Source: a candidate division WWE3 bacterium (lineage in GTDB: Bacteria > Patescibacteriota > WWE3 > UBA101185 > UBA10185). From it: DNA of 64,000 nucleotides. Within the stretch, counting starts at the first letter, position 1, and each line of letters opens with the position of its first letter. This document shows, one piece after another, positions 3,001 through 32,140 of the stretch. The position numbers were made by a program, and so were the translations under genes. The stretch is taken from assembly GCA_014729135.1 (NCBI GenBank), contig WJKK01000001.1, forward strand, positions 64,593 through 128,592, in the 5' to 3' direction. The notes under the pieces are model-generated. The model saw only the letters and a list, made by a program, of their open reading frames with translations. It was not told where the DNA came from and searched no databases.

Positions 3001-3703
3001 TAACAATTGGACATCTTTAAATCAAGGCTATCCGGATATAACCGGGTTTAAGGCTTTTCAGGATCCGGAATATTTCTTTAACAACAGCGGCTACGAGGAT
3101 GTTAAAACCCGCTTGGAGAATCTAAGTTTTCAACAAACGTACGAGTACATCTACCCTCAACCGGGAATGGAGAATAATCAACCTAAAAACTACTCTATAG
3201 AACAATTCGCTGAAAATGAGGGTTTAATTCTAATAAAAAGTTTTGAAATAGTGGAATTACCGAAGCATTGGGAGCATCTTGCCTTAAAAGGACAAGACTA
3301 CAAGGAAGCCTTTGATACCCCTGCAAATTACTCCTACAGAAAAATCCTCCCTTCCCTGTGGAAAATCGAAATAGAAAAAGCGCAAACAGATAAAAATTAT
3401 CTCCTCAAATTCAACGAAGGTTTTGATAAACAATGGACAATGTTTGTTAAAGGAACAAATATTTTACCCAAAAGGATTGAAAAGGCTGGCCATACAAGGT
3501 GCAATGGACTTGTAAACTGCTTTGAAATCGACGTCAGAGATGTAACTTCAAAAGAAAAAACAATAAAGCTATGGGTATTCTATTGGCCGGATGTGTTTTA
3601 CTGGATGGGAATAGCAATCTCTCTAGGCACTCTCGTTGCAGGAGCTATTTACCTAAAACAAAAGCAATCCCCTGTTTTAGCTGACGATAAACCCACCAAC
3701 TAA
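1..3703 (+). CDS. Large polytopic membrane protein, 5'-partial at the window edge; function unknown
   Basis: The ORF track starts at a TTG at 116, but the same frame is open back to nt 2 with hydrophobic residues, so the gene likely begins upstream of the window. Many N-terminal TM helices, an ~800 aa hydrophilic domain, and a C-terminal TM (VFYWMGIAISLGTLVAGAIYL). Stop TAA at 3701-3703. Confidence 0.6.
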   Translation, partial: LAPLIAGTFYLFNLNTLATFYFPIFPFVARFYSLPLLTLAWLKILEKNTSRKSWIFLGVTLIITLPSYIIATVFITNMILLVLVSIFRGNLKNSLRGFLFIILINTFWLIPFSSYTLQKSEIMRLAPTFIDANETQLNKPKTYHSLKKQAILLPSFFETTVKSPNLDSNLTKHLHPLAERQGQGNTKPILYIFPTLYILSCLIIFLRPRQNKKILWIPTTTIFFLVMTMKEFSELGFIYAFLDKYLPLFGVVFRFGDTKLHTYIAFAGALAIGIAAGQIIKKTENKKILQGGVTLGTTLILVATGIVFREYFTGNLVGFFIYNRIPQAYYEIAETVQETSKEGRVVHLPYDEKVYWRSYEWGYIGSHFFGYILENPLIEKTFEPASMENAYLNEEVLEITKNSRNLASQEGINRRAQKLYKLLKMAGVSHIIHDETVKTASLPRGLLFWANFNHKDIEILLHALEKSELIEKQETANIDLRDYIYDYEKLFTVEEKLLQEYKMGPIRHLTLYKVKEPERKFEFVKEIVNIKPGKNLLYALENLTENFREAPTETGYIYFPFKTPTNTMNKEETGINLKVGETGPNGNNSIETMESSTQHLLNLEVKKENEQIFIRINEFTLPQLDNKKFLKNVAEFSYTPAEEKQDFTTDTPRYLADWHVLPYQNFAETRLRIEETVIPLPKNQNTNYTEIANILVHTNDPIIEILEPEIAVEINPAEIALTENPNCVGDMLDKYEVERTWNNESVRVNVTNGSACLWRGIQTEIDKTPYAEISLATRASTQDLEKNFKPNPTDTSKPQLRNVITSLEKPTILEICLKEASTDRCLNKHRLLKLTQEESTATVPISSNTSNSQNILALFTLKNMGYQKMKLQISDVRLHKFAKTNEFEVNLANPGLKIENIQTAEAIEIPKILSNNSFYYNPEIEGLYASNGACSYKRNGYNTNRLLSNIWVGYTENCKNDTFQTVPYLDEGFYLWNYEYNLASGKFPEFKVSGPSITLINNWTSLNQGYPDITGFKAFQDPEYFFNNSGYEDVKTRLENLSFQQTYEYIYPQPGMENNQPKNYSIEQFAENEGLILIKSFEIVELPKHWEHLALKGQDYKEAFDTPANYSYRKILPSLWKIEIEKAQTDKNYLLKFNEGFDKQWTMFVKGTNILPKRIEKAGHTRCNGLVNCFEIDVRDVTSKEKTIKLWVFYWPDVFYWMGIAISLGTLVAGAIYLKQKQSPVLADDKPTN

Positions 3704-4508
3704 GTCTTGGGGGCAAAAGTTTATTGCTTAGAAGCTGGAAAACCCAATATGCCTGCGTTACTAAGCTTCCTTTTTGAACATTATTGTGGGCATATCTATG
3801 AGCCTTATACAAACTGTCAGCCATCTTACCCATGTATTTTAAGGAACCGGCCTCACCGTGCCATCTTACATCTACTAAAACTTCCTGCAGATTGGCTAAC
3901 TTGCCTTTAGCTCCAAGCTTATACCAAAACTGAGTATCATCCGCAGGCCAATAATCCTGCTCGTAACCACCTGCTGAAAGCGCAGTTGACTTTCTATACA
4001 TCACAGTAGGATCTGAAAAGGGTCCCACGTACAACCAATGTTTCCGAATTTTTTCATCTGTAGACATAAACTTTAGAACCATAACTTCCTCACCAAATTC
4101 ATCAAACAAGCGAATCCAAGAGCCAACAGCCACTACATCAGAATGCTTCTCCAAAAAGTCCACCTGCTTTTGCAACCGATCGGGGCGCATTAGGTCATCC
4201 TGATTTAAACGGGCAATACACTCCCCTTTTGCGTTATTTAGGATATGGTTTAAGACGTTAGAAAGCCCCTGATTTTCTTTGTACGAATGAAAGGTAATAT
4301 TAGGATGATTTTGGGCTAAGGCCTTACATACCTCAAAGCTGTCATCTGTGGAACCATCATTTATTAAAAAAATTTCAAAGTCGGTAAAAGTACTCTTTTC
4401 AACAGAGTCTATAGCGTCCTTTATATATTGGGAACCGTTGTAAACGGGAATGGCTACAGTTACTTTGGGGGTTTCTATTTGGGAGGTTTGAATTGTTTTT
4501 GAAGACAT
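3645..4508 (-). CDS. Glycosyltransferase family 2 (GT-A fold)
   Basis: N-terminal VTVAIPVYNGSQYIKDAIDSV...FEIFLINDGSTDDS is a classic GT2 signature. Its 3' end overlaps the upstream gene's 3' end by 59 nt (convergent). Confidence 0.75.
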   Translation of the reverse strand: MSSKTIQTSQIETPKVTVAIPVYNGSQYIKDAIDSVEKSTFTDFEIFLINDGSTDDSFEVCKALAQNHPNITFHSYKENQGLSNVLNHILNNAKGECIARLNQDDLMRPDRLQKQVDFLEKHSDVVAVGSWIRLFDEFGEEVMVLKFMSTDEKIRKHWLYVGPFSDPTVMYRKSTALSAGGYEQDYWPADDTQFWYKLGAKGKLANLQEVLVDVRWHGEAGSLKYMGKMADSLYKAHRYAHNNVQKGSLVTQAYWVFQLLSNKLLPPRLSWWVYRQLKQGIAFVLGK

Positions 4509-4651
4509 GTGATTTTAATTATGAGGTATTTTAGTGAGTAGTTCAATTTTTAGTTTTTAAGAGGTGTGGGAAATAAGTAAGTTGCTTTATTTAAGAAGTT
4601 ATTAAGAGAAAATGTTAAAAGTAATAAGGAAGTAAACGAAGTAAAAAAGAG

Positions 4652-4733
4652 GGCAAAAAAACGGCGCCTACTTACACATGATCCTCTTAAAAGAGATCCT
4701 CCATACATCTGGAGTGTGTAAGTAGACGCCGTC
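4652..4733 (-). terminator. Long imperfect hairpin (19-bp arms 4660-4678 / 4715-4733, ~36-nt loop) followed by a T-run on the minus strand; putative terminator or boundary element of the GC-rich island
   Basis: aacggcgcctacttacaca ... tgtgtaagtagacgccgtc with one mismatch. Plus-strand aaaaaaa at 4652-4658 reads as a U-tail on the minus-strand transcript, just 3' of CDS 4751-5647. Confidence 0.4.
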
Positions 4734-4750
4734 AGAGCGAACGTCGGGAG

Positions 4751-5647
4751 TTAGTCAGAGCCCCACCATGGGAAATCCCGGGCGGGGTTGATGGGAGCTT
4801 CCCCATCTTCGGTCGGGCAGATGACGACGCCACCGTGAGGGTACTCGAGCCGGATTGGCTCGGTGGCGTCGAAGTTGTACTGGATTTCCTCACCATCAAA
4901 CTGATCTAGGATCAGCGTGGTGTTCCCGAACGTACGTCCGGGCTGGAGCCAGTACAGCGCGAAACCCTCCGTGTACGTCACCGGATCGGAGGCTGATGCC
5001 TCCACGGACCGGCGAATTGCGCCGACGTAGTCGGGGCTGTTCGTCAGGCGATCCAGAGCCACGTACAACTCTCCGGAACCCTTGAGGTCGTTGATCATGG
5101 AGACCAGAACCCCGGCCGGGACGCAGGTGGCGTCTCCAACCTGCCGGATGGCGGCTTCACCGTCGATTTCGGGCGCGCCGTCCAAGGCGATCAACCCGAA
5201 GGTGCTCGGGATGTCCGCGGGGCCGGTGACCGCCCAAACGCCAGTGCGCCCGTCAACGATCAGGGGAGTAACGTTCTCCGGAATCCGGCCGTAGAAGCCG
5301 GTCCAGATGACGTACGTCCCAGAGATCGGGTCCAGCGCGGTGGGACCGTTGACGTGGACCTTTCGGGGGTCCGCGTCTAGGAGATCGATGGCGTCGTAGG
5401 GGTCCAACTCACTGAGGGTGATCACCAGTGCGTCGAACTCCTCCGTCGGCTCCACAGTGGGAACCGCGGTCGGCGGGGCGACGGGAACGGGGGTGGAAAC
5501 GACCGTAGGTTCGGCGGGGGGCGTCGCGTCGGAAGACGCATCGCCGCCGAACAGAACGTAGCCGGCGAATCCCAACCCGAGGGCCAGGACGCCGATCGCG
5601 AACAGAACGACCAAAACCCGGACAACGGCCTTCATGTTAATCGTCAT
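4751..5647 (-). CDS. Membrane-anchored or secreted protein with a Pro/Ala/Thr-rich linker, encoded in a high-GC island; function unknown
   Basis: 298 aa. N-terminal TM/signal anchor (VVRVLVVLFAIGVLALGLGFAGYVLF), then a PPAEPTVVSTPVPVAPPTAVPTVEPT linker. Strong RBS (AAGGAGACTTAAAATG). Local GC ~62-65% versus ~40% in the flanks. Confidence 0.6.
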   Translation of the reverse strand: MTINMKAVVRVLVVLFAIGVLALGLGFAGYVLFGGDASSDATPPAEPTVVSTPVPVAPPTAVPTVEPTEEFDALVITLSELDPYDAIDLLDADPRKVHVNGPTALDPISGTYVIWTGFYGRIPENVTPLIVDGRTGVWAVTGPADIPSTFGLIALDGAPEIDGEAAIRQVGDATCVPAGVLVSMINDLKGSGELYVALDRLTNSPDYVGAIRRSVEASASDPVTYTEGFALYWLQPGRTFGNTTLILDQFDGEEIQYNFDATEPIRLEYPHGGVVICPTEDGEAPINPARDFPWWGSD

Positions 5648-5716
5648 TTTAAGTCTCCTTTGCTCACGCCGTTTTGGCGGAGCTAGTAATTGTTCGAGCG
5701 ATCGAGAAACGCGAAA

Positions 5717-6037
5717 TTACTCCCAGACGAAACGGAGCCGGCGGCGGGAGGGGGCGGCGGGTGCCGGAGCGGGTGCCGGGGAAATCTGATTGGCCCGCTC
5801 GAGCAACTCCTGACCACTATCTGTCAGGATAGCGGCCAGCTCCCGCTGGGCCTCAGCCACGCCCTTACGGGCTTCGTCGGCGGCCTCACGGGCCTCCGAG
5901 ACCTCTCCAGCCTTCTCGGCCAGAGTTTGCATCGCCTCGTCGGCGGCCGTCTGGGCGGCCTGATGGGCGGTCATAGCTTCAGTCAAAACCTCTTGTGCCT
6001 CACGCAAACGCTCCTGAACCTCTACCAATGTAGCCAT
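5717..6037 (-). CDS. Small Ala/Glu-rich coiled-coil protein in the high-GC island; function unknown
   Basis: Start placed at MATLVEVQERL, preceded by AAGGAGGAACAGAAAATG; the ORF track's longer start lacks an RBS. Heptad-like AEAQ/EAxxEA composition and a Pro-Ala tail. Confidence 0.5.
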   Translation of the reverse strand: MATLVEVQERLREAQEVLTEAMTAHQAAQTAADEAMQTLAEKAGEVSEAREAADEARKGVAEAQRELAAILTDSGQELLERANQISPAPAPAPAAPSRRRLRFVWE

Positions 6038-6063
6038 TTTCTGTTCCTCCTTAAGGAATGATT

Positions 6064-6087
6064 GGGGCCTGTGGCCCGGTTTTTTTC
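6064..6087 (+). terminator. GC hairpin plus T7 run at the right edge of the GC-rich island
   Basis: ggggcc-tgt-ggccc followed by ggttttttt. Confidence 0.35.
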
Positions 6088-7030
6088 GAACGATTCCATC
6101 TCCGCAAACTTCTGCAGAGTACTGCAAACCTAAAAGCAACTTGGCACTTTAAATCCTCCCAAATCCCACACTTCACATCTAAAAAACAAACAAAAAGTGC
6201 TCAAAATTACTCCCAAGTTAGCAGTACCCTACTTTGGTTTTGCGTAGTGGAGATTCTGAATCAAGTTCAGAATGACGTTTCCCTTGTCAAAGAAGTATTC
6301 CCTTACCGGAACAACGCTTCCCTATCAGAGAAACATCTCCTTGTCGAAATGACGTTTCTTCACGAAAATCAAAAACCTACAAAAAGGAAAAATGACTTCA
6401 AGAATTTAAGCAATACCTTTGTATTTACTAACTAACCCTATTTAATTATCAAACTGCCTTTAAATGGCTAAAAAGCTATTTAAAAATTCAACCCTTAAAA
6501 ACTTTAAGCAAGATTCTTGCTTTTAGACATTAAGAGCTGATTTAGAAACTCCTCCTAATTGCCAAGCAACCTTTGCGGGGTCGCGTGCATGTATATATAA
6601 AGGAGAAATTGCTAAATCATTTGCTATTTAGCTTAGCCTTTATCCTTGTAAGTGCTGTAAGTAACCGAATAAAGCGGCGTAATAGCTTGTTAGCAATGGT
6701 ATCAGTAGTATCAGTGTTATCGGTGTTATCAGGCCAAACTTTGGAGGTTTTTATGTCCTCCTCATTTGCTGATGACTAAATCATACTATGGGACAGGTGA
6801 CTTGTCAAGTGTTATGGGATACTTTTGTGCTGGGCTGCTTCATTGGCCCACTTTAGTGACCCGCAAGAACACAGCACAAGGAACTGGAAAGGAATCTAGG
6901 AGAGTCCTGTCCGCAACATCCCCTAACTGAGGTTTATTATACTACGGGTTATAGGATGTGTCAACTTGTCGCATTGGATAATAATTTTTGTCATCCAAGC
7001 CCTCTTGTTGAAATGCAAAGTGGGGCAAAA

Positions 7031-7360
7031 CTACAAAAGCAACGCAAATTTCCAAGGAACCTTCACCATAGCATCGTTCACCTCCAAAGGGCTTGCTGAA
7101 AAAATCAGGCCGTAATCTCCTCCTATGGAACGCAGCGTTTCTGCAACTTGAGCGTAGTTCTTCCGGCCGGAACCAACCTCAATAATAAGGCGACGATCAG
7201 GACGCTCCAGAATAAAATCAGCGCCCTCCCGCGAACTATCATAGAACAGGGGCTTCTCTACTCCCGAAATCAACATCTCCTGTAAGTATCCGGCGGTAAT
7301 ATCCTCTAAAAGATACCCCTTATATTTTGAATACGCTTCCTCCCCATTAAGGGCGTACAT
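7031..7360 (-). pseudogene. Possible C-terminal remnant of a third COG1373/DUF4143-type ATPase paralog
   Basis: The 109 aa ORF has GADFILERPDRRLIIEVGSGRKNY, resembling the C-terminal (D...ExK-like) segment of the neighbouring ATPases (EIDFVL...GLEVKNT and KEIDLI...GFEFKWG). No ATPase domain is present. Confidence 0.3.
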
Positions 7361-19206: not shown

Positions 19207-19338
19207 TATCCCGGCGACGACCTATCTTCCCAGACACGCGGTCTAGTATTTTCAGCGCTGGTAAGTTTAACTTCTCTGTTCGGAATGGATGTCCCGACAA
19301 GCGGGACGTAGAGGTGGGTCCTTACCGCCATCGTCACC
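19207..19338 (-). rRNA. rrf: 5S rRNA
   Basis: The reverse complement reads ...ccattccgaacagagaagttaaacttaccagcgctgaaaatactagaccgcgtgtctgggaag... with helix I ends ctcggtgacgatggcgg / ggtcgtcgccgg. Boundaries are approximate. Confidence 0.6.
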
Positions 19339-20170
19339 GAGATGATGCTTATAAACTGAGCTCATAACGGATATCCCCTTTCTTGCTCAGGCTTCCCTTC
19401 GGTCAGAATTCGCTCAAAAGGGGATATCCGAAATTCGCTAGGTGTATGAAGGCGAGAAGTGAAATGCTTCCTAACCTAATACACAAAAGTGCTTGTTTTA
19501 CTTTGAACAAGGGGATTCCCTTTTGCACGACATTTCGGAGCAAAGCGACGTCGTGGAGTGCAAAAGCGGAAACACTTGTTCAAATCCAACAAGAACAAGC
19601 ACAAATATTCTATTTTCAAAGAAATCAAGTAGATCAACTGCGCTCAATTGCCTCACAAGTTATTTAACAACTCGTAAGCTAGAAAAGAAGCGCAACATTA
19701 GTACTGCTCGGCTGAGAATTCCTCCAAACGTCATCATTTTTCCTAAGCAAAAGGGCAAGCCCAATTACTTTTGGAAGGCCGATTCAGTAAGAGAAATATC
19801 TACACACCCCTTACGGGGCTTACACCTACAGCCTATCAACCTGGTAGTCTCCCAGGAGTTGCGACCCACTTAAAGTGGGATAGTCCTAATCTTGAGGTGT
19901 GCTTCGTGCTTAGATGCTTTCAGCGCTTATCACGTCCGAACGTAGCTACCCAGCGATGCTCCTGGCGGAACAACTGGTACACTAGAGGTTCGTTCATTCC
20001 GGTCCTCTCGTACTAGGAATGACTCCTCTCAGGACTTTGCGCCTGTTGCGGAAAGGGACCGAGCTGTCTCACGACGCTCTAAACCCAACTAACGCGCCTT
20101 TTTAATGGACGAACAGTCCAACCTTTGGGACCTTCTCCAGCCCCAGGATAAGACGAGTCGACATCGCATG

Positions 20171-21006
20171 TTAATCAATTATTACTAATTGCACTGACTA
20201 TATCTTCTTCCTCATTCCTTTAAACCATCCATTTGTTTAAAGAGATAGGAGTCGGCGTATTATGAAAGTTTAAAATACAACACTTTACTCAAGTCTTCCA
20301 TCTCGCCCGCTTTTACGGGCTCAGTCGATACGGGGTCATAACAAAAGTTTATACTTCATACTCTCTATTATCAGAGGCTCCGTTAAGGTATTAAACCTTT
20401 TAACGCATCTCTTATAAAGGCGTATTCTGAAGTAAATTTTATCCTTATTCAAAGAGCCTTCTAAACCAAGTTCAGTTAGCTTTTTGAGAAGAAAACTCTG
20501 ATCCTCCAGGTCAAATTGTTGAGTATTGAAATAAACAGAATCCCTGTCTTTAGAACCATCATCCATAAACCATACAGCTAAAATCAAAGGATCTAGCTTT
20601 AGGTTTCTAGGAATGGTCTTGTACTCTTTTTGAGAATAATAATCCTCATAGAATACATTCAGTTCAGGCAGACTTCTGGTTGTAAATCTATAAGAAAAAC
20701 GGTTTTTCCCGGATTTTCTTAATTTTGGAGGAGTTAAAACATAAGATTTCAACTTCTCATACAACCAAAAGACATAGTCTTTCTGTTTATTAGAGTGGTT
20801 TATCTCCAAAAGAGTATTTTTTCTCCTTCGTAAAGAACCATCTCCCAACAATTTCCCTGTTATTATGGATTTTTGGACTTTTGTCAGACTTCCCACGGTA
20901 TCATCCATGTACAAAATAATACCACAATGTACATTAGGACTCCACCGTTATTAGCCGAATTTTTGGTACCGAATTACTTCGATAGCACCCCTTTCTATTT
21001 CCTTGT
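20171..21006 (-). mobile_element. Group I intron in 23S domain V, at the E. coli ~U2500 site (GGCACCU|CGAUGUCG)
   Basis: The exon junction reconstructs the conserved GGCACCTCGATGTCG. The upstream exon ends in U and the intron ends in G. It contains a LAGLIDADG ORF and shares 5' and 3' sequence blocks with the 16S intron. Confidence 0.75.
20336..20914 (-). CDS. LAGLIDADG homing endonuclease (single-chain, two motifs) inside the 23S intron
   Basis: Motifs ITGKLLGDGSL and ILAVWFMDDGSKD. N-terminus MYMDDTVGSL is paralogous to the 16S-intron ORF. Confidence 0.8.
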   Translation of the reverse strand: MYMDDTVGSLTKVQKSIITGKLLGDGSLRRRKNTLLEINHSNKQKDYVFWLYEKLKSYVLTPPKLRKSGKNRFSYRFTTRSLPELNVFYEDYYSQKEYKTIPRNLKLDPLILAVWFMDDGSKDRDSVYFNTQQFDLEDQSFLLKKLTELGLEGSLNKDKIYFRIRLYKRCVKRFNTLTEPLIIESMKYKLLL

Positions 21007-21049
21007 AGGTGCCAAACAGTGCCGCCGCTGTGGGCGCTCGGGCACTATT

Positions 21050-21080
<31 letters not shown>

Positions 21081-23140
21081 ATAAGTTCCGGGCCTACCAT
21101 TAGGCACTCGGAAGATCACTAAGACCTACTTTCGTATCTGCGCGATTTGTATATCTTGCAGTCAAGCTCCCATATACCTTTACGCTTACATCCCGATTTC
21201 CATCCGGGACAAGGGAACCTTTGTGCTCCTGCGTTACTCTTTAGCAGGAATCCGCCCCAGATAAACTGCCCTTCAAACATTGTCCTCTCACCCGATAAGG
21301 GCGAACAGTTAGGCTTGCACTAGTGAAAGAGAGGTGTTTCATCGACGTCCTCCAGTCGTTAAACGGGAGAACTCCCTCCTACTCTACACAGTCAATAGCA
21401 CGCACCAATGTCAGAATACAGTAAAGCTCCACGGGGTCTTTCTGTCCAGCAACAGGTAACCGGCATCTTTACCGGTAGTTCAATTTCACCGAGTTCGTGA
21501 CTAAGAGAGTGCTCAAGTCGTTACACCTTTCGTGCGGGTCGATAATTATTCGACAAGGGATTACGCTACCATAGAACAGTTATAGTTACTGCTGCCGTTC
21601 ACCCGAGCTTGAACCGAAAGCTCATTCCACTCCTAAGAGGGGAAATCACCTCCAGTCTTAACTTACAGGCACTGGGCAGGTGTCGGCCCCTATACCTCCT
21701 CTTGCGAGTTTAGCAGAGACCTGTGTTTTTAATAAACAGTCGCTTGAGCCATTTCTGTGCCCCCCACGCAATTAAGCATGGGGCATCCTTTTCCCTAAGT
21801 TACGGATGTAATTTGCCTAGTTCCTCGGCCACGATTCTCTCGTTCGCCTTAGTATTCTCTACTTGTCTACCTGTGTCGGTTTGCGGTACGGATACTAAAA
21901 AACCTCCCTAGAAGCTTTTCCCGGGAGCTTAACGCAACCGGATCACGCCTTTCGACGCTTTTCCCCCGGCTCACGTGAGTCTCCTTGCGGAGACAACGCC
22001 CGTACGGATTTGCCTGTACGGACTAGCTTGCCTTCGGGACTCAAATCCATAATGAGCCCGGCCTATCAAACTCCGTCCCTCCATTGGTAAAAACGGTTTT
22101 TCAGTAGTGCAGGAATATTAACCTGCTGTCCATTAGCTACGCCTTTCGGCCTCACCTTAGGACCGACTAACCCTCCGATGACTGACATTGCGGAGGAACC
22201 CTTAGACTTTCGGCGAGGTGGGTTTTCACCACCTTCTCGTTACTCATGCCAGCATTCTCTCTTGATAACGCTCCAGCAGCCCTCGCGGGTCTACCTTCTG
22301 TGCTACGTTCAAGCTCTTTTGAAGCCGATCCTGATTTACATCAGGATGACATCTTTAAAAGTTTGAATGTTATCAATGCTCCCCTACCTTCTGCCTCCTA
22401 CAAGAGGAGACAAAACCATAGTGTCGGTTCTTTGCTTGAGTCCCGTTAAATTTTCGGCGCAAGGCCGTTTAACTAGTGAGCTGTTACGCTTTCTTTAAAG
22501 GTTTGCTGCTTCTAAGCTAACCTCCTAGCTGTCTAAACAGACTTACTTCCTTTCTCACTAAGCATTCCACACAAGGTGGAACCCCCACAAAAGTGGGGAA
22601 AGATTTGGGACCTTAACTGATGGTCTGGGATGTTTCCCTTTCGCGCTAGGAACTTGCTCCCTAGAACTGACTCCCGGTCAACGGATTTGCGCATTCGGAG
22701 TTTGGTAAGAGTTAGTACGCAAAAGCGCCTAATCTCTTTTCAGTATCTCTACCTCACAAATCCTATAAGACCAAGGCTATACCTACATATATTTCGGGGA
22801 GAACCAGCTATTGCCAAGTTCGATTACCGTTTCAGCCCTAACCACAGGTCATCCGAGCATTTTTCCACATACACCGGTTCGGGCCTCCATCCACCTCTCG
22901 ATGGACTTCACCCTGCCCATGGTTAGATCACTTGGCTTCGGGTCTAATAGCACGTACTTATCGCCCGTTAAGACTTGGTTTCCCTTTGCCTCCACGACTG
23001 AATCGTTTAAGCTTGCACGTGCAATTAACTCGCTGGCTCATTTTTCAATAGGCACAATATCACCCGAACTTATCCGAAGATAAGTGGGCTCTATCAGCTT
23101 GACTGTGTACGGTTTCAGATTCTATTTCACTCCCCTATCC

Positions 23141-23185
<45 letters not shown>

Positions 23186-24262
23186 GTCTTGACGTGTTTA
23201 GCCTTAGCAGATGGTCCTGCTTCCTTCACACGAGGTTACCGTGTCTCGTGTTACTCTGGACAACTCAAGAAGATTCTTTGTTTCGTTTACGGGGCTATTA
23301 CCCTCTTTGGCTCCACTTTCCAGGAAGATTCTCCTACAAAAAATTTTCTAACTTCTTTTGTCTTAAAGACATAGAGTTTCCGAACCGCCAAGCACAAATA
23401 TAATTTGTGCTTGCCTTTGGGCTGATTCCCGTTCGCTCGCCGCTACTAGGGAAATTACTTAATTTAGTTTCCTTTCCTCCGGTTACTAAGATGTTTCAGT
23501 TCACCGAGTTACCTTCTCTTTACCTATACCCCACGAATTGTGAGGTTTTAGTAAAGGATAACTGTATTAAACAGATGGGTTTCCCCATTCGGAGACCCCC
23601 GGCTAATAACGCTTCTTATCAGCTGACCGAGGTTTATCGCAGATTGGCGCGTCCTTCTTCGGCATCAAGACCCAAGGCATCCACCATACACATTGAGTAT
23701 CTTTTCCAGCTTACAAGTTGGCACACAACCTGTAAGACAGTAATAAAGGTATTTCCTTTATTACGAGGAATATCTCCTTTTTGTTTTAAGGCACTCTCAA
23801 AGGGAGCGTCTTACCGCCGCCCTTAACGCCTTCTCAGGAGATATTTCATTCGATGAGGAAACGAGGTCCTCACCACGTTTCCTACAATTGAACATTTGAT
23901 ACTTTTAAAACGTTTGGTTTTACCCTTACGTTTTATCTGTATTGTTGATCTACTTAATTTTCAAAGATCTGTTAAGTTTGCGCGTGTGATTGCTTTTGCG
24001 TTCACATTTGGCAAAGTTAACTTAGCAAACAAAAGTGAGAGCATTCTAGTGCAGACACTTTGTTTATGCTTTTCAAGTTGGCTAAAGCCTAACTTGAACG
24101 GCTTCTGAAAACCTCTCTAAAGAAGTTCTCAAGACTGACAATCTCGAGGAGAGATCGTCAATCTTAAAAACTCCTAGTTAATCGGCTTTAATGAAACGTT
24201 TTGAGCCGAGAGGCATTGTATCATATGGTTTTTCAATGTAAATGACCCAAAAAGTTCCGCGA

Positions 24263-24357: not shown

Positions 24358-24434
24358 TGGTGGACTCGGCGGGAATCGAACCCGCGACCTCCGCCATGCA
24401 AAGACGATGCTCTAGCCAACTGAGCTACGAGCCC
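24358..24434 (-). tRNA. tRNA-Ala (anticodon UGC), CCA encoded
   Basis: The reverse complement gggctcgtagctcagttggctagagcatcgtctttgcatggcggaggtcgcgggttcgattcccgccgagtccacca folds as a cloverleaf. Anticodon loop cuUUGCAug. Confidence 0.85.
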
Positions 24435-24478
24435 AAAAACCTGCCTCCGGCAGTTTTTGGGTCCAAGCAAACGTCAAA

Positions 24479-24520
24479 GACGTTTGTTTGCTACCTAAAA
24501 GGTTACAAAGTAACCTTTTA
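24479..24520. repeat. 42-bp direct repeat, copy 1, containing a perfect hairpin aaaaggttac-aaa-gtaacctttt
   Basis: gacgtttgtttgctacctaaaaggttacaaagtaacctttta. Second copy at 24711-24753. Confidence 0.6.
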
Positions 24521-24710
24521 CCCGAGAACCACCTACGGAAGCTCAAGGACTTAACAAAACGCCTTGCGTTTTGTTATGCCCAAAAATTTCAAAGAAATTT
24601 TTGGGGCCAGGTAAATGCGATTGAACAGGAGCATTTAGCTGGACCGTAAAACTTCTATGAAGTTTTACAAGGCATCCGAAAAAAGCTCAAGAGAGCTTTT
24701 ACGCAAAAAA

Positions 24711-24753
24711 GACGTTTGTTTGCTACCTAAAAGGTTACGAAGTAACCCTTTAA
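24711..24753. repeat. 42-bp direct repeat, copy 2 (2-3 mismatches)
   Basis: gacgtttgtttgctacctaaaaggttacgaagtaaccctttaa. Confidence 0.6.
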
Positions 24754-24883
24754 TCCTGCACAAAGTACAAATAAAGCAACTCCAAATATTAAATTAAAAA
24801 CCGGGATATCAGAGCCTCTTTTTTAAAGAGGATTAATTCCATTCCTAGTGAATCCATCAATGAATCCACGCAACAATAAGTTA

Positions 24884-26113
24884 TCATTCAAACAGGCGCA
24901 TGTCAACACTTTTAAGCAAATTCTTCAGACCATTTAACCCCTTCGAATGTTCCCCCGCTTCAGAAACAACCTCCTCATACATTTCAAGCGTCTGACTTGC
25001 AACATTAGACCAATCCATATGGGAAACCTTCTCCTTAGCTGCCAAACACAGCGCCTGATAATCCTCCTGGGGCAAACTTGCCAACTCCTTTAACTTAGCA
25101 GCAAAATCCTTGGGAGCCGTTTCCAAAGGAAAGTTATAACCCACCGAAACATCCACAAACTCATTAGTAGTTTCATTTTCCAAAGACACAATAGGCGTAC
25201 CCGAAGCCAAAGCCTCCAAAACCGACAAACTCTGAACCTCCTTTAGTGAAGCGGACACAAAGAAATGAGACTCTTCAAGCATTTTAGGTATCTTCTTATG
25301 AGGTACTTTACCTACAAAACTAACTAAAACCTCTGCTTTTTCAACTTTATTCTTCAGAAGTTCATCATAACCATCATTCAATGGAACCCCTATTAGATTG
25401 AGCTCAAACTCCTTTTTGGGTAAATGTTTCATAGCATCTATTAAATACGCCTGATTCTTGCGCTTGTTAAGGTAACCAACAAAAATCAGCTTTTTTGGAG
25501 TTGCTGTAATGTCCGCGCAAGACAAGTCTGCGTAATTTTCGAGGTTTCGCCCGTTAGGTATCGTATAAACAGGCGTTTCTAAGTCGTAAGTTTCCAAGTC
25601 TTTTAAAACGGAGTCGTTTATGGCGATGATTGCAGAGGACTTCTTTAGAAACAGGTCAAAGTAACTGTCAAAAACTTTAGAGTCAAAAAGCGATTGCATC
25701 TTTGGAAAGAGCTCTGCTAAACCAAAAGTCACAACCTCTGAGGGAATTGTGTGAGAGGTGAAAACCGTAGGTGTCTTATTTTTTAGTGCCCACAAAAGAG
25801 AAACAAAAGCTGCAGGACCTTGATCATGAAAGTGGATTATGTCGGGAGAAAAGTCACGCAAAACTTTAAGGAGGGAGTTGATTTTTACAGGGTCCAGAAG
25901 CGGTAAAATGACGTCTTGCTTTTTTCTACCGGAAATCTCAAATTGAGTAAAGGTTTTTGTCGTTTTTGTTTTCCCAGTTTCTTCTCCGGAGAGGATTAAA
26001 AGGATATTGTTTTCGGAGGGCGTTTTTGACAAAACTTCTGCAAGCTCCCGGGCTACACGGCCATCCCCTCCTGAGCTATTTGCTGATGCACTGGAAACAA
26101 AAGCGATATTCAT
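24884..26113 (-). CDS. Glycosyltransferase family 4 (GT-B fold)
   Basis: The C-terminal E-x7-E region (EAEVLVSFVGKVPHKKIPKMLEESHFFVSASLKEVQSLSVLEALASGTPIV) is typical of GT4. Confidence 0.75.
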   Translation of the reverse strand: MNIAFVSSASANSSGGDGRVARELAEVLSKTPSENNILLILSGEETGKTKTTKTFTQFEISGRKKQDVILPLLDPVKINSLLKVLRDFSPDIIHFHDQGPAAFVSLLWALKNKTPTVFTSHTIPSEVVTFGLAELFPKMQSLFDSKVFDSYFDLFLKKSSAIIAINDSVLKDLETYDLETPVYTIPNGRNLENYADLSCADITATPKKLIFVGYLNKRKNQAYLIDAMKHLPKKEFELNLIGVPLNDGYDELLKNKVEKAEVLVSFVGKVPHKKIPKMLEESHFFVSASLKEVQSLSVLEALASGTPIVSLENETTNEFVDVSVGYNFPLETAPKDFAAKLKELASLPQEDYQALCLAAKEKVSHMDWSNVASQTLEMYEEVVSEAGEHSKGLNGLKNLLKSVDMRLFE

Positions 26114-26140
26114 GGCAGTTTGAATTCTAGCACACCCGAA

Positions 26141-26325
26141 AAGGGACAGTCCTCTAAGGGGACAGTCCTTTTTAAAACCTACTCTGAAATTCTAGTCTAA
26201 ATAGAAGGGGCTTTAAAAGAGAAACTCTATCGCAAAAGTCAAAAATCAACTTCCTTAACTTCCGAAACTTCTAGTTTAACTAGAATTACTAAAGAGGACA
26301 GTCCTTTAAGAGGACTGTCCCTTCC
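26141..26325. mobile_element. MITE-like composite palindromic element (module A-B' ... B-A) in the GT4 / relA divergent intergenic region
   Basis: Left end aaagggacagtcctctaaggggacagtcc...attctagtctaaatagaa. Right end cttctagtttaactagaattactaaagaggacagtcctttaagaggactgtccc. The ends are imperfect inverted copies of each other (~60 bp). Confidence 0.45.
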
Positions 26326-26354
26326 AGACAAAGCTGCGGTATAATAAGGGCACC

Positions 26355-27770
26355 ATGTCCCTCCCCCAAGCCAAAAAACTGGCAGAAAAAATCTACAAAA
26401 ACAAAACCCGCTTATCCGGGGAAACCTACTACGAACATGCTCTAGAAATCGCGAACCGCCTAAAAAAGTATGGAATCCAGGAAGAAATCACTCTAATAAC
26501 AGCAATCCTCCATCACGCCCTCGACGAGAAAAAAACAACAGCCCAATCCGAAATTGCAGAAATCAGCAAAGAAGCTGCAGACCTTCTAGAGAAATACAAG
26601 CGCCTCACAAAAACCGACATAAAAACAGAATCCCTTACCACTTATAACGAGCGCTACATAATGCAAACTTTTGTAAATCTGGTGGAAGACATTCGAGTCC
26701 TTATAATTAGAGCCGTAGATAAATTGCATGCCCTGGAAAATTCCTGGGCCTTGGAAAAGGAGAAACGTGAGGAGGCTGCTCAAAGAGCCCTTTACCTTTA
26801 TGCCCCCCTTGCAAAAATCCTGGGAGTATCGAAAATTTCAAAAGACCTGGAGGATACAGCGTTTAAAATCCTATACCCGGACAAATACTTTAAAATCAAA
26901 AAAAGTGTACAGAAGCGTTCTTGGGGTACTAAAAAGATTTTTAGGGAGGTGGAAAAGTTTTTAAAGGAGATTCTAGCGGAACAGGGTATTGAGAACTTTA
27001 AGATTCAATATCGGGTTAAAAGTGCTTATAGTTTGCATCGAAAGGTAGAGCGCTACAAAAAGGAAGGTAAGGCGCTGGGCGAGGATTTGAGTAAGATTTA
27101 TGATCTTTTTGCACTTCGTCTCGTTCTTAATACAGTGGAAGAGTGTTACCTAACAGAAAACCTCCTGGCACAACTTTGGGAGGAAATTCCAAACGAACGG
27201 GATGACTACATTAAAAATCCCCGAAGCACAGGTTACCAATCAATCCATAATGCCTTTCAAATTGACAACGACTTCATTGCGGAAGTGCAAATTCGAACGC
27301 ATGAAATGCATCAACAAGCGGAGTTTGGCATTAGTTCGCATCTTTTGTATAAGATTGGGGATAAAGGGGCAAAGTCAAAGGCCGTAGATAAATTCAAAAA
27401 GTACCTCCAAAAACATCCGGAATGGTTTAAGGATTTGAACTTCTGGGAGATTGCGCCGGATAAAAAGTATATACCTAAAACTCCCTTTAGTGACAATATT
27501 TACACGTTTACACCAAAGGGGGATATTATTGAGCTGCCTAAGGGGGCTTCAGTTGTAGATTTTGCCTATAAGGTGCATACGGAGGTGGGCAATAATTGTG
27601 CGGGAGCCTTTGTTAATGGGAAAATTGTTAAGTTGGATCATGTTTTGAGGACGGGGGATACGGTGAAGATTAAGGTGGATAAGCGTAAGCGGCGTCCAAG
27701 TAAGGATTGGCTGGAGTTTGTGGAGACGCGGGCAGCGAAGATTCATATTAATCGTGCCTGGCGGGAGTGA
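26355..27770 (+). CDS. relA: RelA/SpoT-family (p)ppGpp synthetase: degenerate HD, synthetase and TGS domains, no ACT domain
   Basis: HD region ETYYEHALEIANRL...ILHHALDEK (canonical LHD replaced by LHH). Synthetase motifs YSLHRKVE, DLFALRLVL, YQSIHNAF, EVQIRTHEMHQQAEFG. TGS IYTFTPKGDIIELPKGASVVDFAYKVHTEVG. Confidence 0.85.
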   Translation: MSLPQAKKLAEKIYKNKTRLSGETYYEHALEIANRLKKYGIQEEITLITAILHHALDEKKTTAQSEIAEISKEAADLLEKYKRLTKTDIKTESLTTYNERYIMQTFVNLVEDIRVLIIRAVDKLHALENSWALEKEKREEAAQRALYLYAPLAKILGVSKISKDLEDTAFKILYPDKYFKIKKSVQKRSWGTKKIFREVEKFLKEILAEQGIENFKIQYRVKSAYSLHRKVERYKKEGKALGEDLSKIYDLFALRLVLNTVEECYLTENLLAQLWEEIPNERDDYIKNPRSTGYQSIHNAFQIDNDFIAEVQIRTHEMHQQAEFGISSHLLYKIGDKGAKSKAVDKFKKYLQKHPEWFKDLNFWEIAPDKKYIPKTPFSDNIYTFTPKGDIIELPKGASVVDFAYKVHTEVGNNCAGAFVNGKIVKLDHVLRTGDTVKIKVDKRKRRPSKDWLEFVETRAAKIHINRAWRE

Positions 27771-27787
27771 TAGCTATTCAAAGTATT

Positions 27788-27864
27788 TATGGTGGGCGTT
27801 CATGGACTCGAACCATGGGCCTCTCCCTTATCAGAGGAGTGCTCTTACCATCTGAGCTAAACGC
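27788..27864 (-). tRNA. tRNA-Ile (anticodon GAU), CCA encoded
   Basis: The reverse complement gggcgtttagctcagatggtaagagcactcctctgataagggagaggcccatggttcgagtccatgaacgcccacca. Anticodon loop cuGAUaa. Begins 18 nt after the relA stop on the opposite strand. Confidence 0.85.
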
Positions 27865-27871
27865 CCTTGAA

Positions 27872-28684: not shown

Positions 28685-29422
28685 AATTTAAAAATCACTT
28701 ATATTTGCTTCAACTTCTCTCTAAACTCAAAATTCAAGAAACCAAAGGCAAAAAGAATGCTCATCTACGAGTTTTGTTATGTGTGAATATTCACCACACA
28801 ACGGCTCACTCGAAACCTTCCCAAAGCTGCTTGTGAGTTACACAGCTCTACTGACTACACGATTTAGGGATTATCACATGTAGTAGGTGTTTCTTCTTTT
28901 GAAGGGCTTTTTTGTAAGTTCATACAAAAAAGATTCCTGCAATCAAAAACACTTGTTACTCCTTAGAAAGGAGGTGATCCAGCCGCAGATTCCCCTACGG
29001 CTACCTTGTTACGACTTCACCCTCATTACTGATTTCACCATGGGACCCCTTAAAAGAGGTACTTCAGGTGACCTCAGCTTTGCTGATGTGACGGGCAGTG
29101 TGTGCAAGACCCGAGAACGTATTCACCGTCGTTTTGCTGACCGACGATTACTAGCGATTCCAACTTCATGAAGTCGAATTGCAGACTTCAATCCGAACTG
29201 AGATGCGCTTTAGGGATTAGCTTTACCTTACGGTATCGCGATACTCTCTGTACGCACCATTGTAGCATGCTTCTAGCCCCAGTCATAAGGGCAATACCGA
29301 CTTGACGTCGTCCCCGCCTTCCTCCATCTTACGATGGCAGTTCCGCTAGAGTGATACAACTAGCAGTAAGGGTTGCGCTCGTTAACCCACTTAAGGGTAC
29401 GCCTCACGGTACGAGCTGACGA

Positions 29423-30294
29423 CCATGTGTAATTCCATTGTTTCCAATGGCACTGACTATATCATCATCCCAATTTTTGCATTGGGAGATCGGCGTGTTA
29501 TGAAAGCGTTTATCCCCACTCATGATTATGTGAGGTAACTTCCATCTCTCCTATAAAAGGATCAGTCGATACGGGGTCATTGTAGTTTTCCGGAAATAGA
29601 ATACTTCCCGATGCCTTCTAGAAACTTAGATAGGGTACTTTTTGAAAAGTACAAACAATAAGTTCCGGCAGCAGAATATCTATATACGGATGTATTTATT
29701 CCTGTGAGTAGGGATCGATCAAGGGATAATTCCGTTGAATCGCCATAAACAATTCTACAGAAAGTTCCCTCCGGAGATATTGAACCATCTCCATCAAATC
29801 TACCCGCAAAATAGGGATAAATACATTCCTTTGCAAGATGTTTCCTATTGGAAAGAGAATATAGGAATTCTCTAACTAAAGGCCTTGAATTAACATAAAC
29901 GTGATAGGCCATTGAAACATTTTTCGAACACTTGCAAAAAGACTTTTTAAATCCTTCGAAACGCTTTGGAATCTCATTACCGTAAATACGGACTCTAACT
30001 CTCTCTTTAGGAAACCTTTCTAAAAGGAAATCTAAAGATCTATAGAGTAAGGTAAGATTCGTATTACTTAGTCCTATGCTGCTGGTTCGTAAATAACGAT
30101 CAGCACCCCAAAGACCAAGAATATAAGCATCTTCTGGATTTGTAAGTAAACTACCAAGACTTCCCACGGTATTGTCCATACACTTATATTAGCATAAGAT
30201 GTATTAGGATTTCACCGTTATTAGCCGATTTTTTCGATAGCGATTACTCGCTAAAGGGCCATCGTTGACGCAGGCCTAAGCCTGCTTTGTGCAT
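29423..30294 (-). mobile_element. Group I intron in 16S between GCAUGGCU and GUCGUCAGCUCG (E. coli ~1059/1060), carrying a LAGLIDADG ORF
   Basis: The exon junction reconstructs ...acaggtgttgcatggct|gtcgtcagctcgtaccg. The upstream exon ends in U and the intron ends in G. Shares cagtcgatacggggtcat and gatatagtcagtgc blocks with the 23S intron. Confidence 0.7.
29577..30179 (-). CDS. LAGLIDADG homing endonuclease inside the 16S intron
   Basis: MDNTVGSLGSLL N-terminus, motif 1 AYILGLWGADRYL, motif 2 YPYFAGRFDGDGSIS. Confidence 0.75.
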   Translation of the reverse strand: MDNTVGSLGSLLTNPEDAYILGLWGADRYLRTSSIGLSNTNLTLLYRSLDFLLERFPKERVRVRIYGNEIPKRFEGFKKSFCKCSKNVSMAYHVYVNSRPLVREFLYSLSNRKHLAKECIYPYFAGRFDGDGSISPEGTFCRIVYGDSTELSLDRSLLTGINTSVYRYSAAGTYCLYFSKSTLSKFLEGIGKYSISGKLQ

Positions 30295-30578
30295 AGCCAT
30301 GCAACACCTGTGTATGCTTCCTAATAAATTAAGATCGGGCACCTTTCGGATTCCTACTACAAACATGTCAAGACTGGGTGAGGTTCTTGGGTTAGCAACC
30401 AATTAAAGAGCATGCTCCACCGCTTGTGCGGGTCCCCGCCAATTCCTTTGAGTTTCAGCCTTGCGACAATACTCCCCAGGCGGCCTGCTTAACGCGTTAG
30501 CTTCGACGCTCAGTCTTAAGACCAAGTATCTAGCAGGCATAGTTTACGGCTAGGAATACAAGGGTATCTACATATTGT

Positions 30579-30886
30579 TACTATGGTTGGATTGATTACC
30601 AACTCCTCATATCGCTATGAGGATCGGACTATATCATTATCTCAACGAATTGAGATATTTGGCGTATAGTCTCTGAGGATTTCCATACTAAAGTGTCCCT
30701 TACTATGGATCTTTCCTGCTGATTGTCTGCACCGGAAGCATTTTTAGGCATTATGAATATTATAGTAATTGTTGTTACCTAATTCAATACCTAGCCCCGG
30801 ATACTCAGATGTTCCAGCATATAGCCAAATTTTAACTCTATAAGGTCGCCCTAATAGAGGGACCGATACCTTGTTGATCCTTTTCT
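30579..30886 (-). mobile_element. ORF-less ~300-nt insertion in 16S near E. coli ~770-785; putative small intron
   Basis: The exon sequence ...gacgaaagctaggggag is followed by non-rRNA sequence until ...tagatacccttgtattcctagccgtaaac resumes. Shares motifs (ttggcgtatagtctctgagg, ccagcatatagccaaatttt) with the insertion at 31150-31512. Boundaries are approximate. Confidence 0.5.
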
Positions 30887-31149
30887 CTCCCCTAGCTTTC
30901 GTCTCTCAGCGTCAGCACAGCCCCAGACAGTTGGCTTCCCCCTTGGTGTTCCTCGTGATATCAACGCATTTCACTGCTTCACCACGAATTCCACTGTCCC
31001 CTAGCTGGCTCTAGTAATACAGTATTGAAAGCAGTCTCTCGGTTGGGCCGAAAGATTTAACCTCCAACTTATATTACCGCCTACAGAACTCTTTACGCCC
31101 AGTAAATCCGGATAATGCTTGCACCCTACGTTTGACCGCTGCTGCTGGC

Positions 31150-31512
31150 TTCTGCTATAGGTTAACCCCCATACTGCAGCTTGTGAGTTATTAATTAACT
31201 CGCCTTGGACTATCTCTTCATCCTCATTCACCTTGGTTAAGGGAAAAAAGGAGTTTGGCGTATAGTCTCTGAGGGCTTTCTCATCATTAGTACAAAAACA
31301 AAATAATATTGCGTACTAAATTAGAGGTTGCCTGCTGATTGTATTGCAATCCATAAGTGGAGCGCGGTTCGCCCCTTTTCGAATTTCCAAAGGATTGTCA
31401 CTGGAGTTTAACTCCGAGTACCTTTGTATTAACAATAGTTTCCAGCATATAGCCAAATTTTCTTATCTAGTGTTACCACTAGAACTACGCACCTGGTCTT
31501 CTTTCAGACCTT
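31150..31512 (-). mobile_element. ORF-less 363-nt insertion in 16S that splits the 515F primer site (ggctaactacgt | gccagcagcagcgg); putative small intron
   Basis: Both exon halves are seen in the sequence. The insertion begins with an inverted repeat aactacgtaaggtctgaaagaagaccaggtgcgtagtt (P1-like). Related to the 30579-30886 element. Confidence 0.55.
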
Positions 31513-32140
31513 ACGTAGTTAGCCGGTGCTTTTTAACGTGAGTTTACAACCCGAAGGCATTCATCCTCCACGCGGCGTCGCTGCGTCAGACTTTCGTCCA
31601 TTGCGCAAGATTCCCGATTGCTGCCTCCCGTAGGAGTGAGGCCCGTGTCTCAGTGCCCCTCTGCCGGTACATCCTCTCAGATCCGGTACCCGTCATAGCC
31701 TTGGTGAGCTTTTACCTCACCAACAAGCTGATAGGCCACAGGCTCGTCCCTAACCGATAAATCTTTGGAGTTTCCTCCACATCGGGTATTAGTTCACCTT
31801 TCGGTGAATTATTCCCGAGTTAGGGGTAGATTCCTATGTATTACTCAGCCGTTCGCCACTAACTATTTAAGGTGTCTACCCGAAGGTAGACGATATAAAT
31901 AGTCCGTTCGACTTGCATACCTTAGGCACGCCGCTAGCATTAATCCTGAACCAGGATCAAATTCTCAAAAAAACATTCTTTTTGCCTTCAGTCCCTCGAA
32001 TAAAATTTCAAGAAACTTAAAGACAAGCGATTTTTAGCTCTATTTAGGTTTTCAATGTGCAAAATAACTAAGTCCAGTTGAAATTAGATATAAACTAATT
32101 CTAAGTAGGAATTATTTAAGCTCGTGAAAACCTAAATAGT

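Follow-up and report, generated by a model that had tools for sequence, protein, structure and literature searches.

Insertions in the rRNA genes of the Candidate Phyla Radiation (CPR) have been surveyed by Tsurumaki et al. (2024; PMC11270868), who found insertions of ≥100 bp in 48% of 380 CPR 16S rRNA genes, 35% of the insertions being Rfam group I. In that survey, LAGLIDADG_3 open reading frames (ORFs) occurred in 16S insertions only, insertions with and without ORFs occupied common sites and were highly similar outside the ORF, endonuclease-bearing insertions were confined to highly conserved regions, and 2 of the 11 16S genes from candidate division WWE3 carried insertions. As cited there, Brown et al. 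(2015) reported that CPR insertions are removed from transcripts, and the escape of intron-rich CPR 16S genes from the primer pair 515F/806R is a published hallmark of the group. Here, we describe a 16S rRNA gene in a 64-kb stretch of contig WJKK01000001.1 (the window, 64,000 nt), which is interrupted by large insertions at three universally conserved sites, after Escherichia coli positions U516, U788 and U1060. We interpret these as group I self-splicing introns in the 16S rRNA of an ultra-small WWE3 bacterium, a reading that is very probably correct, and refer to them as introns A (S516), B (S788) and C (S1060).

Homing group I introns in CPR rRNA are an already described phenomenon, of which the window offers a well-resolved new instance. 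The likeness to the known CPR insertions (Brown et al. 2015; PMC11270868) extends to the host radiation, to Rfam group I membership with or without LAGLIDADG_2 or LAGLIDADG_3 ORFs, to the presence of several insertions within one 16S gene in highly conserved regions, to the sharing of sites between ORF-less and ORF-bearing elements, and to the failure of primers. In contrast to the survey, which gave neither exact junctions nor the irregularity at S516 described below, our analysis concerns one WWE3 genome with exact splice junctions. The use of the case lies in these junctions at S516, S788 and S1060, accompanied by one intact endonuclease and two endonuclease-less relics, and in showing how homing introns at conserved sites lengthen CPR rRNA genes and defeat universal primers; for ribozyme specialists, interest is restricted to the splice-site register problem of the S516 intron family.

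In eukaryotic nuclear rDNA, too, S516 counts as a classic position for group I introns (PMC9223047). Nuclear S516 introns, such as the IC1 introns of myxomycetes, resemble those of CPR bacteria in their insertion after the equivalent of U516, in their group I core and in the presence of homing endonuclease genes in some members (PMC9223047). Unlike the nuclear introns, those considered here have bacterial hosts and LAGLIDADG rather than His-Cys box endonucleases, and the ORF of the CPR relatives lies after P9 and runs across the 3′ splice site. Nuclear S516 introns also keep a terminal G (PMC9223047), which intron A lacks in the expected register. Judging by the title of its description, Coxiella burnetii, an unrelated host, has a group I intron that lacks the canonical terminal G, located in the 23S rather than the 16S gene (Cbu.L1917; Raghavan et al. 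2007).

Exons, junctions and host of the 16S rRNA gene

The gene matches the full bacterial small-subunit model of Rfam (RF00177, positions 1–1533, 1102.8 bits) at 28967–31972 on the minus strand, as do all features of the gene described below. Its 3006 genomic nt reduce to 1466 nt once the three introns are removed, against the 1533 positions of the model. Junctions were placed by aligning provisional exons to rrsH of E. coli K-12 and comparing them with intron-less relatives, which were picked out among species-representative genomes by their match to the gene's unusual 530 loop. This procedure replaced a MAFFT alignment of the unspliced gene with E. coli, in which the insertions were scattered, and a first E. 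coli reference was dropped as an atypical 1522-nt copy. Exon 1 (31513–31972; E. coli 1–516) ends in GGCUAACUACGU, exon 2 (30877–31149; E. coli 517–788) runs from GCCAGCAGCAGCGGUCAAAC to GAGAAAAGGAU, exon 3 (30295–30570; E. coli 789–1060) from UAGAUACCC to GCAUGGCU, and exon 4 (28967–29423; E. coli 1061–1542) from GUCGUCAGCUCG to GGAUCACCUCCUUU, the first two having been aligned to the intron-less relatives as well as to rrsH. Ligated as predicted, at ACGU-GCCAGC (S516), GGAU-UAGAUACC (S788) and GGCU-GUCGUC (S1060), the exons give the exact sequence present in two intron-less relatives that are 93–94% identical to the spliced gene (over the full 1466 nt, 93.2% for L003 and 93.9% for L004, the latter labelled candidate division WWE3). 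The initial annotation had recognised a 16S gene with three insertions, at 28968–31975, and this description holds with slightly different ends. Its coordinates for intron A were exact, those for intron C (29423–30294) were off by one, and those for intron B (30579–30886) were shifted by 8–10 nt.

We assign the host to candidate division WWE3 (Katanobacteria, CPR), because the ORF of intron C is identical to a WWE3 protein and the closest 16S matches belong to metagenome-assembled genomes of WWE3 or Patescibacteria. The 530 loop (31110–31149, GCCAGCAGCAGCGGUCAAAC) carries C526A, A532C and U534A relative to E. coli, and its exact 24-mer was present in only five species-representative genomes (L003–L007), intron-less ones included, with the labels WWE3, Saccharibacteria or Patescibacteria; we therefore read the three substitutions as a lineage trait. 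G505 is unchanged, and by our reading the 505–526 pseudoknot pair would then be G-A.

Group I features and the predicted endonuclease of intron C

Introns A (31150–31512, 363 nt) and B (30571–30876, 306 nt) contain no ORF. Both match Rfam Intron_gpI (RF00028) above the curated gathering score of 50, intron A with 61.1 bits (E = 4.7e-13, span 31184–31522) and intron B with 87.8 bits (E = 4.9e-21, span 30605–30877), and their folding z-scores against shuffled controls are −3.9 and −4.7, respectively. Intron B lies between AAAAGGAU and UAGAUACCC, beginning with CAACAAGG and ending with AACAAUAUG; GGAU precedes it and the intron ends in AAUAUG, with U at the end of the 5′ exon and a terminal G on the intron. 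By inspection, its P1 is GGAU/GUCC and its P10 GAUACC/GGUAUC. Intron A lies between ACGU and GCCAGC, starting with AAGGUCUG and ending in GCAGAA (3′ end CCUAUAGCAGAA). In the Rfam alignment its P1 pairs AACUACGU with GCGUAGUU, the U516-G wobble included, and a P10 of GCC/GGU can be read from the sequence. The 5′ exon ends in U for all three introns, in each case opposite a G of the guide sequence in P1, and P7 is GACU/AGUC in introns A, B and C and, at the sequence level, invariant in their homologues.

The two ORF-less introns share two exact 20-mers, confined to them and with a chance expectation of none: CCUCAGAGACUAUACGCCAA (30659–30678 in B, 31255–31274 in A), covering P6′-J6/7-P7-P3′, and AAAAUUUGGCUAUAUGCUGG (30814–30833 in B, 31442–31461 in A), covering P3-J3/4-P4. 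Both sit in the group I catalytic core of the Rfam alignment. An 18-mer of the P6′-J6/7-P7-P3′ block recurs in at least 120 metagenome contigs, mostly outside 16S genes, and marks a large intron family rather than a private one. Intron B aligns with the 998-nt S788 intron of the WWE3 relative L128, whose 16S gene is 92–94% identical to that of the window, at 81% identity over positions 1–229 and 89% over 217–301. The L128 intron has ~690 nt more in its P8 loop, encoding a 269-aa LAGLIDADG_3 ORF, and intron B reads as this intron minus those ~690 nt. The L128 16S gene itself (3873–7199) scores higher with the archaeal small-subunit model RF01959 (721 bits) than with the bacterial Rfam model, probably because two large introns disturb the alignment.

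Intron A is homologous to the S516 introns of L055, L097, L139, L142, L143 and L145, with which it shares a P1-extension hairpin, the guide GG(U/C)GC(G/A)(U/G)AG, a P2 hairpin and the motif AAGAAAAUYU..GCUAUAUGCUGGA. In six members of this family, intron A among them and L139 left out, RNAalifold recovered P1, P2, P3, P4, P5, P6 and P8 with 23 compensated pairs, the U516-G wobble being invariant (6/6). These homologues were recognised through their 16S context, a BLAST comparison of intron A with 120 core-motif loci having returned no close full-length homologue. A scan of viral contigs for the 3′ junction of intron A found nothing, and in viruses the S516 endonuclease has distant relatives, which lie outside 16S genes. 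Taken together, introns A and B are ordinary group I introns, endonuclease-free versions of mobile LAGLIDADG-bearing introns at the same sites.

Intron C (29424–30294, 871 nt) is the largest insertion, and the initial annotation was right to call it a group I-type intron with a LAGLIDADG ORF. It lies between GCAUGGCU and GUCGUCAGCUCG, with GGCU before it, starts with AUGCAC and ends in ACACAUG, a terminal G included; the intron-less site reads GGTGTTGCATGGCT followed directly by GTCGTCAGCTCGTA. In a permissive search it matched Intron_gpI over its 3′ half only (29434–29760, 28.4 bits, E = 1.4e-4). Further S1060 introns were gathered through ORF homologues from contigs L128, L131, L133, L135 and L136, which come from different samples; L137, which encodes a homologue of the endonuclease, was left out of the alignment, the S1060 3′ flank not being found there. 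All S1060 introns lie between the same flanks and end in G (6/6). With the ORF removed, 98.7% of cells were paired under our structural model of the six sequences, compared with 31–41% when partners were slid by 1–3 columns, and 15 of the 52 pairs had changed on both sides (all five pairs of P2, four in P8 and one in P3). The model comprises P1 (GGCU/GGCC, with a U1060-G pair invariant in 6/6 sequences), P3 (AUCGGC/GCCGAU), P4 (ACGGU/ACCGU), P7 as given above and P10 (GUCGU/ACGAU), together with P2, P5, P8 and P9; the ORF occupies the P6 loop, its start codon within P5′, and two extra, IA-like hairpins stand between P7 and P3′. Covariation therefore supports a full P1–P10 group I fold with a P3/P7 pseudoknot. 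An ORF in L6 combined with P7.1/P7.2-like hairpins resembles Michel–Westhof subgroup IA, exemplified by the td intron of phage T4. We infer that intron C is IA-like, and these features would account for its weak Rfam score.

The ORF of intron C (29577–30179, 200 aa) carries the motifs ILGLWGADRY and YFAGRFDGDGS and matches Pfam LAGLIDADG_3 modestly over residues 123–191 (28.2 bits against a cutoff of 22.5, E = 2.3e-6). Its identity to GF360_00370, an NCBI protein from a candidate division WWE3 bacterium, is 100%; this protein is encoded on an 864,248-bp contig, and we therefore take the window to belong to a nearly complete, publicly available genome. The ORF has 564 homologues, for the most part from CPR bacteria. 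In 40 homologues both motifs are invariant or nearly so, motif 1 around Y19-G22-L23-W24-A26-D27 and motif 2 at G126-R127-F128-D129-G130-D131-G132, with the acidic residues D27 and D131 conserved. A PDB search by sequence returned noise only, and structure was more informative: the AlphaFold model (pLDDT 91.2, pTM 0.88) has many structures of I-DmoI as its top fold matches in the PDB, full-length alignments of ~192–205 columns with TM scores of 0.6–0.73 and E values down to 1.6e-7, in keeping with the αββαββα fold of LAGLIDADG endonucleases. The protein is most likely, from this model, a monomeric two-domain LAGLIDADG enzyme. I-DmoI, encoded by a 23S intron of Desulfurococcus mobilis, is its best structural match and is likewise encoded in an rRNA intron, with two motifs per chain and a similar length (~190 aa, against 200). 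The two differ in host domain, rRNA gene and target site and are 15–18% identical, the WWE3 protein being known from its sequence and model. I-DmoI also lies in an archaeal-type intron, not a group I intron. Activity has been demonstrated for a related CPR enzyme, I-ShaI, according to the survey of CPR insertions (PMC11270868).

Homologous introns occupy the same sites in independent assemblies, at S1060 in L128–L136, at S788 in L128, L131 and L097, and at S516 in L055, L097, L133, L139, L142, L143 and L145. We propose that the whole 3-kb gene would be transcribed, that each intron would fold into a group I core and align its exons on the internal guide sequence through P1 and P10, and that two guanosine-dependent transesterifications would remove each intron to leave a 1466-nt rRNA. 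The endonuclease of intron C presumably cuts intron-less S1060 alleles, the intron spreading by repair-mediated copying, and introns A and B would be endonuclease-less descendants of mobile introns that still bear LAGLIDADG genes at both sites in relatives. Such losses would fit the usual cycle of gain, decay and loss of homing endonuclease genes.

The S516 register and competing explanations

The 3′ junction of intron A departs from the pattern of the other two introns. Intron-less relatives read ACGU-GCCAGC, and the window reads ACGU, then AAGG...GCAGAA, then GCCAGC. This junction is fixed by the intron-less relatives and cannot slide, so that intron A ends in A. P1 (U516-G) and P10 agree with this register. 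A terminal G is obtainable only if the mature rRNA has A517 or loses G517, and neither of the changes that we tried as a rescue, a 2-nt (AA) exon insertion or the loss of G517, yields the ACGU-GCCAGC of the relatives. Three products are possible: a 5′ exon to U516 and an intron ending in A would give normal rRNA, cleavage after A517 with a terminal G would give G517A, and a 5′ exon to U516 with a terminal G would lose G517.

Comparison with other S516 introns shows how far this irregularity is shared. Among eight for which both junctions or their equivalents are known, L055 and L090 have G both after U516 and before G517; L097, L139, L143 and L145 have G after U516 and A before G517; L142 has A and G in these positions; and the window is the only one with A in both. 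The L142 intron would be canonical with a 5′ exon to U516 and an intron ending in G, its sole other reading being an rRNA with A517. The four introns with G and A would either be cleaved at the 5′ side after G517, one nucleotide past the U-G wobble, or end in A. In L133, the closest relative of the window (16S genes 95.6% identical), a homologous tail ends in G (CCUAUAGCCACG before GCC, where the window has CCUAUAGCAGAA before GCC), and the LAGLIDADG ORF continues across the splice site into the exon, an arrangement found also in L097. The 57-aa ORF fragment of L133 had no match in a protein search.

This read-through provides a probe of the base before G517. A C-terminus of the form x-QQ(Q/P/E/S)R-stop is present in 44 of the 120 homologues listed for the L097 endonuclease, where residue x is coded by NGC and GC represents rRNA positions 517 and 518. 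In 35 of these LAGLIDADG_2 ORFs residue x is Ser (AGC), which places A before G517; 7 have Gly, corresponding to G, and 2 have Arg, corresponding to C. More generally, the LAGLIDADG_2 ORF of CPR S516 introns lies after P9 and reads across the 3′ splice site (in the 832-nt intron of L097, in L133 at 3–176 and in 49 of the 120 listed proteins), stopping within the 16S exon (UAA in GCGGUAA, or UAG in CAAACGUAG), with its last 5–8 residues encoded by the 530 loop. In L090 (~5780–5845 as oriented; also L104 at 40–60), the 5′ exon end AAACUCGUG is duplicated ~50 nt downstream, directly before the S516 intron, with a short hairpin-forming spacer between the copies; the duplication may be a scar left when the intron was gained imprecisely, or else a small nested insertion.

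CPR S516 introns, intron A included, may break one of two near-universal group I splice-site rules, an idea that we put forward tentatively and consider possible if doubtful. Were it true, group I ribozymes of a large natural family would ligate exons without a terminal G despite a canonical guanosine-binding site. A competing explanation, which we think unlikely, is a defect or chimerism in the assembled intron A. The metagenome consensus may have joined the 5′ end of one allele (L142-like, U followed by AAG) to the common 3′ end (A before GCC) of another, or the intron may have decayed after the loss of its endonuclease gene, in the latter case with G517A, loss of G517 or failure to splice as the outcome. 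The A at both junction sides, unique among the eight introns, and the tail ending in G in the closest relative speak for such a defect, as does the general difficulty of assembling rRNA introns from mixed populations. On the other hand, intron A otherwise has an intact group I core that folds well, its exons are intact, and a dead copy should be lethal given the single 16S gene usual in CPR genomes. Cbu.L1917 of Coxiella, going by the title of its description, would be a natural precedent for an intron of this kind.

Explanations that deny the group I nature or the splicing of the insertions fare worse. If the insertions were expansion segments kept in the rRNA, or intervening sequences that RNase III cuts out with the ends left unligated, the 16S rRNA would be enlarged or fragmented; fragmenting intervening sequences are known in bacterial rRNA and probably occur in CPR 23S genes (PMC11270868), although Brown et al., as cited in the same survey, reported that such insertions are absent from transcripts. 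In the window, however, all three elements have group I cores with guides pairing to both flanking exons, and relatives with 93–95% identical exons lack the insertions. RNase III-type elements would be simple stems without a ribozyme core in a variable helix, whereas here group I cores occupy invariant positions. These positions are the 530 loop, the 790 loop and the 1050–1065 strand of helix 34, which we take to be universally conserved functional sites, unlikely to tolerate a retained insertion or a break. We consider this explanation highly improbable. The proposal of the initial annotation that the two ORF-less elements might be an undescribed small intron class draws only on their small size and missing ORF, and has practically no chance of being right. 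The kinship of the two elements that it noted is borne out by the shared 20-mers, but these blocks coincide with P3/P4 and P7/P3′ in the group I core, both elements exceed the Intron_gpI gathering score, the core 18-mer is widespread in metagenomes, and each element has ORF-bearing homologues at its own rRNA site, intron B differing from one of them by the ~690 nt of the P8 loop.

Several points nevertheless weigh against three functional group I introns in this gene. Intron A is without a terminal G in the sole register that gives the relatives' G517, and this despite a guanosine-binding pair in P7 that looks canonical (G-C). For intron C, the Rfam score is below threshold, and the structure is a manual model drawn from the window sequence and checked on only six homologues. 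Splicing, the activity of the endonuclease and the precise position of the 3′ splice site in intron A are predictions from sequence, and our view is limited to the 64-kb window, so that a second, intron-free 16S copy could lie elsewhere in the genome.

Primer sites and the remainder of the window

The initial annotation had described the 515F site as both split and mutated, and genomic DNA bears out both parts. The target (GTGCCAGCAGCAGCGGTCA) mismatches the primer at positions 12 and 18 and is split in genomic DNA after its second base, which gives four mismatches in all: two from the intron split, C526A, and A532C at the penultimate 3′ base. Beyond that description, intron B splits the 806R/785 site, leaving 806R with three mismatches in genomic DNA, two of them at its 3′ end, and intron C splits the 1046–1064 site, from which 1064R has three mismatches. 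Primer 341F has a single mismatch, at its 3′ terminus. V4 surveys with 515F/806R should miss the lineage twice, both sites being split and both carrying lineage-specific substitutions. The expectation that the organism would be invisible to standard amplicon surveys is thus probably correct for V4 and V3–V4 primers, yet it describes a published property of CPR bacteria. Giant sulfur bacteria, which belong to a different phylum, also have introns in their 16S genes, reportedly at other sites. Like the WWE3 gene, theirs contain several self-splicing introns, and PCR surveys were hampered (Salman et al. 2012, as cited in PMC11270868).

The rest of the rRNA locus also lies on the minus strand. Rfam identified tRNA-Ile (27790–27866) and tRNA-Ala (24358–24434; both with ARAGORN coordinates), a 23S rRNA gene (19771–23707) and a 5S rRNA gene (19209–19341). 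The 23S gene has an insertion of ~840 nt (20167–21006) between E. coli positions 2500 and 2501, with a 192-aa LAGLIDADG_2 ORF (20336–20914, Pfam 122 bits) and a weak Rfam group I match at its 3′ end (20175–20404, 25.9 bits). This insertion probably adds a fourth homing group I intron to the locus. Between tRNA-Ile and tRNA-Ala (24434–27790) lie a GT4-family glycosyltransferase gene (24884–26113, minus strand) and, on the opposite strand, a gene for a RelA/SpoT-HD-TGS protein (26355–27770). With these two genes inside the rRNA operon, 16S and 23S are ~5.3 kb apart and therefore unlikely to form one transcript.

Elsewhere in the window, a 1195-aa ORF (116–3703, plus strand) has no Pfam match at E ≤ 0.001. 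A 1.2-kb island (4800–6000) has 60–67% G+C, compared with ~41% for the genome. The island encodes a 298-aa protein (4751–5647, minus strand) with no Pfam match and no tandem repeats, which has an N-terminal hydrophobic segment and a linker rich in Pro, Thr and Val; the island may be of foreign origin or reflect a join made during assembly.

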